UHGV virus genome: UHGV-0164608
From: a virus
Length of the DNA stretch: 25,274 bases
Reading direction: 5' to 3' (one strand)
Under the pieces are notes generated by a model, which ran no database searches, had not been told where the DNA came from, and worked only from the letters and a program-made list of their open reading frames with translations. The translations under genes were made by a program, and so were the position numbers. The stretch's first letter is position 1. Each line of letters opens with the position of its first letter. This document shows, piece after piece, positions 21,495 through 24,924 of the stretch.

Positions 21495-22091
21495 ATGTCA
21501 ACATCAAAGTACCCAAGTGAGATCAAAATAAATCCCAATAAAGGTGGTAAGGCTGCGATTGAGCGATTAGTCGAAGCTTATGGCTTTACGACACGACAGG
21601 CTTTAGCTGATCACTTGGAAGTATCAAAAAGCACTCTGGCGAACAGGTATTTGCGGGATACGTTTCCTGCAGACTGGATAATCCAATGTGCTCTTGAAAC
21701 AGGAACCTCACTGAAATGGTTAACCACCGGGCAAGGACTTAAGCAAAGCTCGCTGACAGTAGCCACAGAAGAGCTTCCCAAGTTTCGCCTTACCGCAGGC
21801 AAAATGATTGAAGATGGTTCATATGTATTCGATTCATCATTTCTTCCTGCAAATCTTTCATCACCAATTGTTATTCAGGATGGGCTTGTCACATACATTT
21901 GTGATCAAAAATTTTCTGAAGTACTTGATGGACACTGGTTAATCAACATCGACGGAACCTATTCCATTCGAAAAATCACAAAGCTTCCAAAAGGTATGAT
22001 TAAAATTACAACTACAGAGAATAGCTTTGAATGTGCATTTTCTGATATTGAAGTGGTTGCTTGTATAAGAAGTACAATAGTTTCAAATTGA
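21495..22091 (+). CDS. cI: CI immunity repressor (phage 186 CI type)
   Basis: ...ERLVEAYGFTTRQALADHLEVSKSTLANRYLRD...CALETGTSLKWLTTGQG... parallels 186 CI. 198 aa. Confidence 0.85.
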   Translation: MSTSKYPSEIKINPNKGGKAAIERLVEAYGFTTRQALADHLEVSKSTLANRYLRDTFPADWIIQCALETGTSLKWLTTGQGLKQSSLTVATEELPKFRLTAGKMIEDGSYVFDSSFLPANLSSPIVIQDGLVTYICDQKFSEVLDGHWLINIDGTYSIRKITKLPKGMIKITTTENSFECAFSDIEVVACIRSTIVSN

Positions 22092-22111
22092 TATAGTAAA
22101 AGGATTTAAAA

Positions 22112-23788
22112 ATGAATTCATTTTCCATCGTTATATTCTTATTAGCATTTCTCGCCCCTGTTCTAGCTATAATATTATTTAAGCAAAGTAAAGAACACAA
22201 AGCCGCCATAGATAACCTGACGGCTAACAACATAGCCCTTTCCAGCCAACTGAGTGAAAATCAAGAAAAGTTAGCACAGACTGCACGAGATCTATCAGAG
22301 CTTGAAGGGCGAGCAGCACCATTATGGCAATACGAAGAATTGCACAGCGCAGTGATGGAGGCAGAGAATAAGATAAAAAATGCAGACTCAATAGCTAGGC
22401 AAAAAATAGAAGAAGCCCAAATAAAGGCAGCTAAGACAGTAAACGAAGCAAGTTATCAAGCTCAGATAACAATAAGCAACGCTAATAGCGAAGCTATAGC
22501 AATCACCAAAGACGCTCGCGATGCACGCCTGAAAGCCAAAGAACGTCTTGATAATGCCAACAGTAAAGCAAATGAGCTGATCTCAAATGCTAATGACAAC
22601 GCAGTAAAAATTATTTCCGATGCAGAAGAAAGAGCAAAAGAGATTGCTGGTTCAGCATATGAAGCTAAAGAGTTTGCAGAAAAATATGAAGCAGTTGCCA
22701 AATCAATGAAAAATAAAATTGAAGGTTATGGCGATGAATGGATCATCCCTAACCGTAGTGTACTTGATGAATTGGCAGAAAATTATGAGTTTACAGATGC
22801 AGGCAAGGAATTACAAAAAGCCAGGGAGTTAACAAAATCATTAATAAAAACTAATAAAGCAGCTTCGTGTGATTATGTTGAGCAAAACAGGCGTAATACT
22901 GCTATCAACTTTGTTTTGGATGCCTTCAATGGAAGAGTTGACAGTATTTTATCGAAAGTCAAACACAACAATTTTGGAAAACTTTCCCAAGAAATAAAAG
23001 ATGCATTTCAACTTGTAAATTATAATGGATCTGCTTTTAGATCCGCAAAAATAAGTGACATCTATCTTCAGGCACGACTCAACGAGCTAAAATGGGGAGT
23101 TGCAGTTAATGAAATTATGCTCGAAGAAAAAGAGGAGCAAAGAAGGATTAAAGAACAGCTTCGTGAAGAGGAAAGAGCTCGTAGAGAGTATGAAAAAGCG
23201 ATAAAAGAAGCCGAAAAAGAAGAGAAAGCTATTCAGCAAGCTATAAATAAAGCGACGAAAGAGCTTATGCTTGCAAATGAAGAACAACGCTTAGCTTTAG
23301 AGCAAAAAATAGCTGAACTACAGTTAAAATATGAAGAAGCTGAAGCTAAAAACCAACGAGCTATTTCTATGGCTCAACAAACTAGATCAGGCCATGTTTA
23401 TATAATTAGCAATATTGGCTCATTTGGCGAAGATGTATATAAAATTGGAATGACACGCCGCCTTGAACCACTTGATCGTGTTCGTGAACTTGGGGATGCT
23501 AGTGTTCCTTTTTCGTTCGATGTTCATGCGATGATTTATAGTGATGATGCACCGTCATTAGAAAATCATCTGCATAAAGTCTTCAACGAAAAGCAGGTCA
23601 ATAAAATTAACTCACGAAAAGAGTTTTTTAACGTAAATATTAAAGAAATTAAATCGGTTATTGAAGATATGAACATCAATGCCCACTGGACAATGTTTGC
23701 AGAGGCGAAAGAATATAGAGAGTCACTAGCTATTGAACAGGAACGCAAAGCAGCCACTTCCGCCAACGATGAACTACATGTTGCTTAG
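22112..23788 (+). CDS. Membrane-anchored coiled-coil protein with C-terminal T5orf172/GIY-YIG-like domain (DUF4041-like architecture); candidate defence/abortive-infection moron
   Basis: N-terminal TM helix MNSFSIVIFLLAFLAPVLAIILF, ~400 aa of A/E/K-rich coiled coil, then GHVYIISNIGSFGEDVYKIGMTRRLEPLDRVRELGDASVPFSFDVHAMIY...LENHLHKVF. AT-rich, 20 nt downstream of cI. Confidence 0.7.
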   Translation: MNSFSIVIFLLAFLAPVLAIILFKQSKEHKAAIDNLTANNIALSSQLSENQEKLAQTARDLSELEGRAAPLWQYEELHSAVMEAENKIKNADSIARQKIEEAQIKAAKTVNEASYQAQITISNANSEAIAITKDARDARLKAKERLDNANSKANELISNANDNAVKIISDAEERAKEIAGSAYEAKEFAEKYEAVAKSMKNKIEGYGDEWIIPNRSVLDELAENYEFTDAGKELQKARELTKSLIKTNKAASCDYVEQNRRNTAINFVLDAFNGRVDSILSKVKHNNFGKLSQEIKDAFQLVNYNGSAFRSAKISDIYLQARLNELKWGVAVNEIMLEEKEEQRRIKEQLREEERARREYEKAIKEAEKEEKAIQQAINKATKELMLANEEQRLALEQKIAELQLKYEEAEAKNQRAISMAQQTRSGHVYIISNIGSFGEDVYKIGMTRRLEPLDRVRELGDASVPFSFDVHAMIYSDDAPSLENHLHKVFNEKQVNKINSRKEFFNVNIKEIKSVIEDMNINAHWTMFAEAKEYRESLAIEQERKAATSANDELHVA

Positions 23789-23846
23789 CAATGTATGTTT
23801 CATAGCAATCACACATTGATTACTGGTTGTATATACAGTTAAATTT

Positions 23847-23872
23847 AGCCCTCTGATATGAGGGCTTTTTTA
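23847..23872 (+). terminator. Rho-independent terminator abutting the int start codon
   Basis: AGCCCTC-tgatat-GAGGGC followed by TTTTTT, then ATG of int. Confidence 0.6.
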
Positions 23873-24924
23873 TGGCAGTACGAAAACTCACCACAGGAAA
23901 ATGGCTTTGCGAATGTTACCCCGCCGGACGTAGTGGACGTCGTGTGCGTAAACAATTCGCCACCAAAGGCGAAGCACTGGCTTTTGAGCGTCACACGATG
24001 GAAGAAACCGAAGCAAAGCCCTGGCTAGGTGAATCAGTGGATCGTCGAACACTGAAAGACGTGGTTGAGCTATGGTTCAAACTACATGGTAAATCACTGA
24101 CAGCTGGGCAGCATGTCTATGACAAATTGCTGCTGATGGTTGACGCTCTGGGCAATCCCCTTGCAACTGATCTAACCTCTAAAATGTTTGCCCACTATCG
24201 AGATAAACGCCTGACAGGAGAGATCTACTTCAGCGAGAAATGGAAGAAAGGAGCAAGCCCGGTCACCATTAACCTGGAGCAAAGCTATCTAAGTAGTGTT
24301 TTTAGCGAACTATCCCGCCTGGGCGAATGGTCGTATCCGAACCCACTGGAGAACATGCGAAAATTCACCATCGCAGAAAAAGAGATGGCATGGCTTACCC
24401 ATGAGCAGATTGTTGAATTACTGGCTGATTGCAAACGTCAGGACCCAATTCTGGCACTGGTAGTTAAGATATGCTTAAGCACAGGCGCACGCTGGCGAGA
24501 AGCCGTAAATCTTACTCGTTCACAGGTGACCAAATACCGAATTACCTTTGTAAGAACGAAGGGGAAGAAAAACAGAAGCATCCCTATCAGTAAAGAGCTT
24601 TACGAAGAGATCATGGCGCTTGATGGGTTCAATTTCTTCACAGACTGCTATTTTCAATTTTTATCCGTGATGGAAAAAACGTCTATCGTGCTCCCTCGCG
24701 GTCAACTCACACACGTTCTGCGCCATACGTTTGCGGCGCACTTCATGATGTCGGGTGGAAACATTCTGGCCTTACAAAAAATTCTCGGACACCACGATAT
24801 AAAAATGACTATGCGTTACGCACATCTGGCACCGGATCATCTGGAAACGGCGCTCCGTTTCAATCCTCTGGCAACGCTGCCAAGTGGCGACAAAGTGGCG
24901 GCAGCGGTTGGCATTACCCCGTAA
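23872..24924 (+). CDS. int: Tyrosine integrase (P2/186 family)
   Basis: 350-aa product with ...GARWREA..., LTHVLRHTFAAHF, LGHHDIKMTMRYAHL (R, H-x-x-R, Y catalytic residues). Confidence 0.9.
   Translation: MAVRKLTTGKWLCECYPAGRSGRRVRKQFATKGEALAFERHTMEETEAKPWLGESVDRRTLKDVVELWFKLHGKSLTAGQHVYDKLLLMVDALGNPLATDLTSKMFAHYRDKRLTGEIYFSEKWKKGASPVTINLEQSYLSSVFSELSRLGEWSYPNPLENMRKFTIAEKEMAWLTHEQIVELLADCKRQDPILALVVKICLSTGARWREAVNLTRSQVTKYRITFVRTKGKKNRSIPISKELYEEIMALDGFNFFTDCYFQFLSVMEKTSIVLPRGQLTHVLRHTFAAHFMMSGGNILALQKILGHHDIKMTMRYAHLAPDHLETALRFNPLATLPSGDKVAAAVGITP

Follow-up and report, generated by a model that had tools for sequence, protein, structure and literature searches.

A SNIPE (PD-lambda-1) family gene as probable defence cargo between cI and int of a P2/186-like temperate phage

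Introduction

Why would a temperate phage of the 186 type carry a 1.7-kb, AT-rich gene between its immunity repressor gene cI and its integrase gene int? The question is raised by the virus genome UHGV-0164608 (25,274 nucleotides (nt), hereafter the window), in which an open reading frame (ORF) of 558 amino acids (aa) occupies positions 22112-23788 of the plus strand, between cI and int. An earlier reading of the sequence, referred to below as the original prediction, took the product of this gene for a membrane-tethered effector that the prophage uses against superinfecting phages. Our comparisons make it highly probable that the gene is a single-gene anti-phage system of the family described as PD-lambda-1 and now called SNIPE, and that it is accessory cargo that a P2/186-like temperate phage holds in its cI-int slot. 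We refer to it as the SNIPE-like gene.

PD-lambda-1 was found in a functional selection as ECOR26 protein RCP76574.1, the product of a 1,503-nt gene (Vassallo et al. 2022, Nat Microbiol, PMC9519451), and was renamed SNIPE by Saxton et al. (Nature 2026, PMC13190303), from whom the remainder of this paragraph is taken. SNIPE is a GIY-YIG nuclease that is constitutively anchored in the inner membrane, and experiments place its N-terminus in the periplasm and its body in the cytoplasm. When the transmembrane (TM) helix is removed, the protein becomes highly toxic and host DNA is cleaved. Its DUF4041 domain promotes DNA binding and contacts the tape measure proteins of siphoviruses, a binding that is strengthened by the substitution W257R, while E414 is catalytic and the N-terminal region associates with ManYZ, the inner-membrane complex used by lambda. 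Work with radiolabelled phage DNA showed that cleavage takes place during injection and not after it, and the defence is direct and non-abortive, with infected cells surviving and growing. Lambda and most siphoviruses are affected, myoviruses and podoviruses are not, and prophage induction is likewise unaffected. Within the family the nuclease is the most conserved part and DUF4041 is less so; the N-terminal region, which has been proposed to serve as a specificity adapter, differs greatly between members in both sequence and length. In 59-66% of members, the first 70 residues include an N-terminal TM helix.

Domain content and predicted structure

The assignment to this family is carried by profile matches. 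Two PADLOC models for PD-Lambda-1 recognize the protein, PDLC03976 at E = 7.3e-120 (aa 107-550 against positions 37-481 of a 491-position profile) and PDLC03977 at E = 3.7e-116, and in PHROGs it falls into phrog_1847 (3.8e-132), a group annotated as being of unknown function. In Pfam, DUF4041 (PF13250, now named 'SNIPE') matches aa 267-322 at E = 3.1e-12, with 46.6 bits against a gathering score of 27, and precomputed Pfam matches list the same domain for orthologues as PF13250:SNIPE. The C-terminal part matches both T5orf172 (aa 427-520, E = 5.9e-17) and MUG113 (E = 1.6e-19) above their gathering scores. The nuclease-like C-terminus that the original prediction had read from the sequence is thus borne out, as are the two Pfam families it had named.

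An N-terminal TM helix had been claimed as well, followed by a coiled coil of about 400 aa. The former stands: a single-pass TM helix is predicted at aa 4-23 (22121-22180; this and the following parts of the gene lie on the plus strand), where the hydropathy profile has its single strong segment (Kyte-Doolittle 19-residue mean of 2.99). The segment is helical in the AlphaFold2 model described below, and an equivalent segment is present in 51 of 58 diverse homologues. Because three residues precede the helix and KQSKEHK follows it, the protein is predicted to have its N-terminus outside and its C-terminus inside. The coiled coil survives only in part. A full-length AlphaFold2 model built from a 58-sequence alignment (pLDDT 81.3) does contain long helices at aa 2-204 (2-72, 75-179 and 181-204) and aa 316-425, but aa 217-325 fold into a compact domain, likewise helical, with DUF4041 inside it. 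According to the model, the middle of the protein would therefore be made of two helical stalks around a folded domain, namely an N-terminal stalk rich in A, E, K and N (aa 24-204, 22181-22723), the DUF4041/'SNIPE' domain (aa 267-322, 22910-23077) within its compact helical surroundings, and a long, E/K/R-rich linker helix leading from DUF4041 to the nuclease (aa 326-425, 23087-23386; modelled as helices 316-387 and 390-425). Model and composition together indicate a stalk of ordinary A/E/K-rich helices. A scan of NCBIfam gave weak coiled-coil matches to DivIVA_Wag31 (2e-5), SMC TIGR02169 (0.0026) and V-ATPase E (0.014), all of which fall below the curated cut-offs and were dismissed as compositional.

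The predicted nuclease (aa 427-520, 23390-23671) is modelled as an alpha/beta domain and carries the key residues G427-H-V-Y430, Y443-K-I-G446, R449/R450, E484 (codon 23561-23563) and N497. When residue conservation was computed over 50-58 diverse homologues, Y430, S433, G436, G439, T448, P466 and F469 proved to be invariant, together with F272 of DUF4041, and conservation of at least 90% was found for G427, K444, I445, G446, R449, R450, E459, E484 and N497, together with N287 and N303 of DUF4041. The conserved set corresponds to the GIY...YIG...R...E...N catalytic core of GIY-YIG nucleases, and with these residues and the three-stranded beta-sheet/alpha-helix fold the protein belongs to that superfamily as a putatively active member.

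Relationship to SNIPE and to other defence systems

For a direct comparison we used as a stand-in for SNIPE a 500-aa E. coli protein (L007:4984-6486), which is not the ECOR26 record itself but matches all nine residues given in the SNIPE paper (E223, N250, L253, W257, E264, K305, I308, T319 and E414). The two proteins share the order of their parts, with a TM helix followed by DUF4041, a long linker helix and, at the C-terminus, a GIY-YIG/T5orf172 nuclease, and the catalytic E414 of SNIPE corresponds to E484 of the SNIPE-like protein, within the motif PSLE(K/N). Over aa 265-555, the part aligned by BLASTP, they are 49% identical (E = 2e-76). Agreement is closest in the nuclease, where 70% of positions are identical, against 45% in the linker helix and 28% in DUF4041; the N-terminal region reaches a non-significant 24% over 151 forced-aligned positions. 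This gradient equals the one published for SNIPE homologues (PMC13190303). Both are prophage-borne single-gene systems, and the SNIPE-like gene is directly flanked by cI and int in E. coli, Klebsiella and Salmonella. Together with the PADLOC matches, the order TM helix-DUF4041-GIY-YIG is that of the published SNIPE family and supports the idea of a membrane-tethered effector against superinfection.

The differences between the two are concentrated outside the nuclease. The region before DUF4041 is 70 aa longer than in SNIPE and the whole protein 58 aa longer, and the tape-measure-binding positions have changed, with E223, W257, K305 and T319 of SNIPE replaced by S292, K327, Q375 and N389, respectively. 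The genomic location differs too, the SNIPE-like gene residing in the cI-int slot of a P2/186-like myovirus and the L007 SNIPE gene, in the one genome concerned, in the early region of a lambdoid prophage.

Other systems resemble the SNIPE-like protein in either site of action or fold. Zorya, Kiwa and superinfection exclusion (Sie) proteins likewise reside in the inner membrane and act at genome injection, where self is told from non-self by location and not by sequence (PMC13190303, PMC12904381). Zorya (the ZorAB motor with ZorCD) and Kiwa (KwaAB) are, however, multi-gene systems that lack a fusion to DUF4041 or GIY-YIG, and classical Sie proteins block entry without a nuclease; no Zorya, Kiwa or Sie model of PADLOC matched the SNIPE-like protein. 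As for the fold, SLX1, I-TevI, the N-terminal domain of UvrC, R.Eco29kI and PD-T4-3 show only 13-26% identity to it and, unlike the SNIPE-like protein, none of these members of the GIY-YIG superfamily is membrane-anchored or fused to DUF4041.

Distribution and selection

Homologues of the SNIPE-like protein form 3,355 clusters at 50% identity when matches with E <= 1e-3 are counted and 1,405 with E <= 1e-30. Because of these 3,355 clusters and the low nonsynonymous divergence (dN) between genera, the ORF is a real gene and not a chance reading frame. The 558-aa subtype itself, at 82-100% identity, occurs in E. coli, Citrobacter, Salmonella, Klebsiella, Enterobacter, Raoultella and others, the values outside E. 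coli being 82-85% in Klebsiella, Salmonella and Citrobacter. In Klebsiella and Salmonella the gene sits in the same prophage type, 20 nt downstream of a 198-aa cI and before int. The cI-SNIPE-int arrangement is present in 164-165 of 5,426 complete E. coli genomes (~3%). The cI allele of the window (at least 80% coverage) is found in 178 E. coli genomes against 165 with the SNIPE-like gene, so that allele and gene are almost always linked; insertion sequences in H13, H21 and H22 suggest that the excess of about 13 genomes may stem from disruption. Newer RefSeq annotation calls the protein 'SNIPE associated domain-containing protein', and one phage record labels a homologue 'PD-lambda-1'.

The N-terminal 264 aa have diverged further between genera (dN 0.135-0.156) than DUF4041, the linker and the nuclease (dN 0.05-0.065), which corresponds to a roughly 2.5-fold higher rate of evolution in the N-terminal stalk. 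Synonymous divergence (dS) was saturated at this distance, and only dN and a few regional dN/dS ratios (0.02-0.05) were obtained. Strong purifying selection thus acts on the whole protein, and the stalk is its fastest-evolving part.

About 270 E. coli genomes encode further proteins whose T5orf172/GIY-YIG domain is related (~71% nucleotide identity across ~200 nt) and which RefSeq names 'GIY-YIG nuclease family protein'. A GIY-YIG gene at L008:3185-4429 adjoins genes for a 3'-5' exonuclease and a YdcA-family protein, amid fragments of toxin genes of type VI secretion systems and contact-dependent inhibition. The small YdcA-family ORF of this island also heads several cI-int slots.

The cI-int junction as a cargo slot

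The setting of the gene is the one that the original prediction described. An ATG at 22112 and a TAG delimit the ORF, whose GC content of 0.36-0.38 contrasts with 0.53-0.62 for the structural genes of the window. Between the TGA of cI (22089-22091) and the ATG lies a 20-nt spacer (22092-22111) with a Shine-Dalgarno sequence (AAAGGA, 22099-22104) 7 nt upstream of the start codon, and 83 nt separate the stop codon from the start of int. The upstream neighbor (21495-22091, plus strand) encodes a 186-type immunity repressor of 198 aa (Pfam Phage_CI_repr 8.4e-32, Phage_CI_C 2.5e-27), and the downstream anchor of the slot (23872-24924, plus strand) a tyrosine integrase of 350 aa (Int_N 3.2e-32, Phage_integrase 7.2e-22). 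That int follows cI closely in phages of the 186 type is also correct, the two genes overlapping by 1 nt in phage 186.

Is the gene then a fixed part of this junction or one of several occupants? Related prophages carry other cargo there, or nothing, so that it is not a conserved core gene of lysogeny. The boundary on the int side is sharp, as similarity to prophages with other cargo resumes no more than about 20 nt past the SNIPE stop codon. In E. coli three alternatives were found, each going with a different cI allele: a YdcA-family ORF of 60-63 aa on its own, this ORF together with a KAP-family NTPase (PADLOC candidate PDC-S20, 2.5e-171), and a 314-aa protein that has no match in Pfam or PADLOC.

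A wider survey, in which the integrase was used as the query against contigs from one genome per species, covered 77 loci. Seventeen have a cI-int gap of 9-34 nt and no cargo, and their int is 186-like and about 50-56% identical to that of the window. At 32 loci with a 186-type cI the gap is 399-3,308 nt, with a GC content of 0.29-0.41. When three E. coli loci are added, the cargo of the resulting 35 loci sorts into 30 protein clusters; a single cargo ORF runs against cI and int, and the others share their direction. PADLOC recognized AbiU (3.3e-127, L031), the two-gene HEC-01 (2e-208 and 6.5e-74) and the candidate systems PDC-S20, PDC-M11A (7.1e-136) and PDC-M18A/B, and about half of the cargos had no PADLOC match. 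The SNIPE-like gene occupies seven of the surveyed slots, always beside the cI allele of the window (81-98% identity), and conversely all seven loci with this allele carry it.

The cI-int junction is therefore a variable defence-cargo slot of this prophage family, a hotspot in the sense of Rousset et al. (2022). The principle of a cI-int hotspot is already known, because one between cI and the integrase gene was described in the Vibrio K139-like, P2-related phages (Rousset et al. 2022, PMC9122126); the P2-like phages of E. coli have theirs at the tin/old and Z/fun loci (Rousset et al. 2022, PMC9122126; Vassallo et al. 2022, PMC9519451). These hotspots likewise hold short, AT-rich cargo of high turnover between conserved phage genes, comprising known and candidate defence systems. 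Unlike the P2 and Vibrio cases, the slot described here belongs to 186-like prophages of Enterobacterales that lie beside rcdA/ybjJ, and its cargo runs in the direction of cI, starts 20 nt past the end of that gene and changes with the cI allele. In a limited search of the literature we did not find this enterobacterial slot named.

Other occupants of the slot were noted along the way. In three of the seven surveyed loci with the SNIPE-like gene an extra ORF of 309 or 286 aa stands between it and int. The 309-aa ORF lies at L019:4981-5910, L020:4982-5911 and L083:4932-5855 and the 286-aa ORF at L021:4845-5705 (minus strand); neither had a PADLOC match, and the 309-aa ORF also occurs in one slot without SNIPE. 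These ORFs may be cargo in their own right or accessories of SNIPE. The second commonest occupant, at 5 of the 35 loci (L002:4036-4980, L029, L035, L083 and L085), is a protein of 314-338 aa with a coiled-coil N-terminal half and hydrophobic segments towards its C-terminus, which again matches nothing in Pfam or PADLOC.

Transcription and the int leader

The original prediction had the gene transcribed from the lysogenic promoter in every lysogen. A consensus scan of the plus strand from the cI start to 23847 found no terminator-like site, and the sole promoter-like match in this stretch is a weak one at 23687-23714, near the 3' end of the SNIPE-like gene. Given the 20-nt gap and the lack of an intervening terminator- or strong promoter-like site, the layout is most simply read as one transcript that would carry both cI and the SNIPE-like gene from the lysogenic promoter, which is plausible.

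The right boundary of the slot is formed by a conserved int leader (23812-23871, plus strand), defined by an alignment of 18 leaders from several genera. Roughly 60 nt before int are kept whatever cargo precedes them (L002, L004-L006, L009, L013, L014-L035). The leaders begin with a -35-like TTGAyy followed by 18 nt that contain a LexA-box-like palindrome, whose halves CTG and CAGT fall in invariant or near-invariant columns. In the window these elements are a -35-like TTGATT (23816-23821), the palindrome TACTGGTTGTATATACAGTT (23821-23840) and a -10-like TAAATT (23840-23845), all on the plus strand; the pattern ACTG-N10-CAGT occurs three times in the window, against 0.33 occurrences expected by chance. 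Immediately downstream lies a terminator-like hairpin, AGCCCTC-TGATAT-GAGGGCT (23847-23866, plus strand; -14.8 kcal/mol, z = -3.0), followed by a run of five T that directly abuts the int ATG. The hairpin is conserved with compensatory changes in leaders behind other cargos, and the int Shine-Dalgarno sequence lies within its 3' arm. Such a hairpin would end the cI-cargo transcript, mask the int Shine-Dalgarno sequence, or both. The arrangement as a whole suggests an SOS-controlled int promoter whose transcripts would start inside or after the hairpin.

Proposed mechanism and alternative explanations

Taking SNIPE as a guide, we expect that the SNIPE-like protein would reside constitutively in the inner membrane, with three residues on the periplasmic side and all others on the cytoplasmic side, and that the membrane tether would keep the nuclease off the chromosome. 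Upon injection of a genome, mainly that of a siphovirus, DUF4041 would contact the tape measure protein and the entering DNA, the GIY-YIG domain would cut that DNA, and the cell would survive, in a direct defence and not an abortive infection. The gene layout adds that co-transcription with cI from the lysogenic promoter would arm every lysogen, and that the cI-SNIPE transcript probably ends at the hairpin and T-run before int. The prophage should not harm itself, since its carrier is a myovirus and SNIPE spares both myoviruses and prophage induction. The locus would thus be a natural example of a prophage that arms its host with an entry-stage nuclease right behind the immunity repressor, with the lysogen protected against siphoviruses and the myovirus carrier at no risk.

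Several points weigh against this assignment. What is said of the subtype's activity, topology, expression and targets is carried over from a homologue whose C-terminal half is only 49% identical, and by BLASTP the first ~264 aa do not align to SNIPE. A search of the Protein Data Bank with the protein sequence gave no match at E <= 1, and Foldseek with the full-length model gave no significant one. Co-transcription is deduced from spacing only, the promoter scan being insensitive. With an N-terminal part that does not align, an association with ManYZ should not be taken for granted; since this unalignable stalk falls in the region proposed as the specificity adapter, the membrane partner and the range of phages may differ from ManYZ and lambda.

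Could the protein instead be an abortive-infection toxin, with infection releasing or activating a tethered, non-specific nuclease that then destroys the host chromosome and kills the cell? SNIPE without its TM helix is toxic and cuts host DNA, which indicates a nuclease that is neither sequence- nor phage-specific (PMC13190303), and the slot is shared with Abi-type systems such as AbiU in L031. We nevertheless consider this unlikely: cells with the characterised SNIPE survive infection and cut phage DNA during injection (PMC13190303), the SNIPE-like protein keeps the same architecture including an uncleaved N-terminal anchor, and no protease or release module is encoded beside its gene. Even less probable is a selfish GIY-YIG homing endonuclease, or other mobile gene, that settled at the cI-int junction without benefit to the lysogen. 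Homing endonucleases are soluble and have DNA-recognition domains, whereas here a TM anchor is joined to a ~400-aa helical/DUF4041 region and no sequence-specific DNA-binding module is recognizable. The full-length purifying selection seen across genera, the inheritance of the gene with one cI allele where a homing gene would be scattered over alleles, and the presence of unrelated defence genes in the same slot speak against it as well.

Public annotation points elsewhere again, as GenBank OM835953 and ON470620 call the gene product a 'chromosome segregation ATPase' and JGI a 'vacuolar-type H+-ATPase subunit H', and the weak NCBIfam matches to DivIVA_Wag31, SMC and V-ATPase E would fit a structural or segregation protein of the SMC, DivIVA or V-ATPase stalk kind. 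Those matches are far under the curated cut-offs (24.5 bits against 260, and 15.5 against 729 for SMC TIGR02169) and reflect only A/E/K-rich helices, with the SMC match confined to the helical linker, a Pfam scan of the protein found no P-loop, Walker or ATPase domain, and the matches to DUF4041, T5orf172 and PD-Lambda-1 are stronger by orders of magnitude. We therefore give such a role almost no credence, and an SMC or V-ATPase identity is effectively refuted by the domain content.

Returning to the SNIPE assignment, it is possible, though we lean against it as a whole, that the 558-aa subtype is a retargeted SNIPE whose stalk docks to an injection conduit other than ManYZ and thereby gives a phage range unlike that of the characterised SNIPE, which covers lambda and Bas14. 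In that case the gene might be inherited with its cI allele as an 'immunity plus entry-defence' module under the control of the lysogenic promoter, with the hairpin insulating int and int compensated by an SOS-box promoter of its own.

The family, its mechanism and this type of hotspot are already published, and RefSeq and PADLOC already recognize the gene, so the value of the present analysis is mainly confirmatory, along with correction of the GenBank label 'chromosome segregation ATPase'. Of modest interest beyond this are the phage specificity that the divergent stalk of a widespread subtype may confer, and the many uncharacterised cargo genes of the cI-int slot.

The carrier prophage

The window matches GenBank OM835953 ('Klebsiella phage KP12 clone KP12_3') at 100% identity, with an offset of 5,234 nt, and prophages in E. 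coli chromosomes at 99.8%; related prophages are integrated beside rcdA/ybjJ. Its gene order is P2/186-like, running from tail and lysis genes through capsid, terminase and portal genes to an AT-rich island and replication gene A, with dam, fil, cII and apl on the minus strand and then cI, the SNIPE-like gene and int on the plus strand. OM835953.1 is filed as 'Klebsiella phage KP12' of the subfamily Vequintavirinae, yet the phage is temperate and P2/186-like, with a genome almost the same as that of E. coli prophages, and it is probably a co-assembled induced prophage. Its SNIPE gene bears the wrong label discussed above.

A near-consensus LexA box, TACTGTAAATATAAACAGTG, lies at 16219-16236 (minus-strand reading 16237-16218), upstream of a DinI-family gene (Pfam DinI 1.3e-22); the ORFs downstream of the box are 15988-16278 and 15744-16049, both on the minus strand. 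The box and the DinI-family gene are the expected counterpart of the p95-tum SOS operon of phage 186, and because of this match the prophage is probably SOS-inducible through a Tum-type antirepressor.

A second AT-rich island (12422-15629, minus strand, GC 0.33-0.43) lies between the portal gene and the tum/A replication side, in the position of the tin/old defence hotspot of P2. Its four ORFs, all on the minus strand, are 12422-13075 (217 aa), 13069-13497 (142 aa), 13510-14643 (377 aa) and 14952-15629 (225 aa). None has a match in Pfam or PADLOC, and those in PHROGs are to groups of 'unknown function' only. We regard them as candidate defence cargo that is uncharacterised and more novel than the SNIPE-like gene; the first three (12422-14643) form a cassette that recurs in a few E. 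coli genomes.

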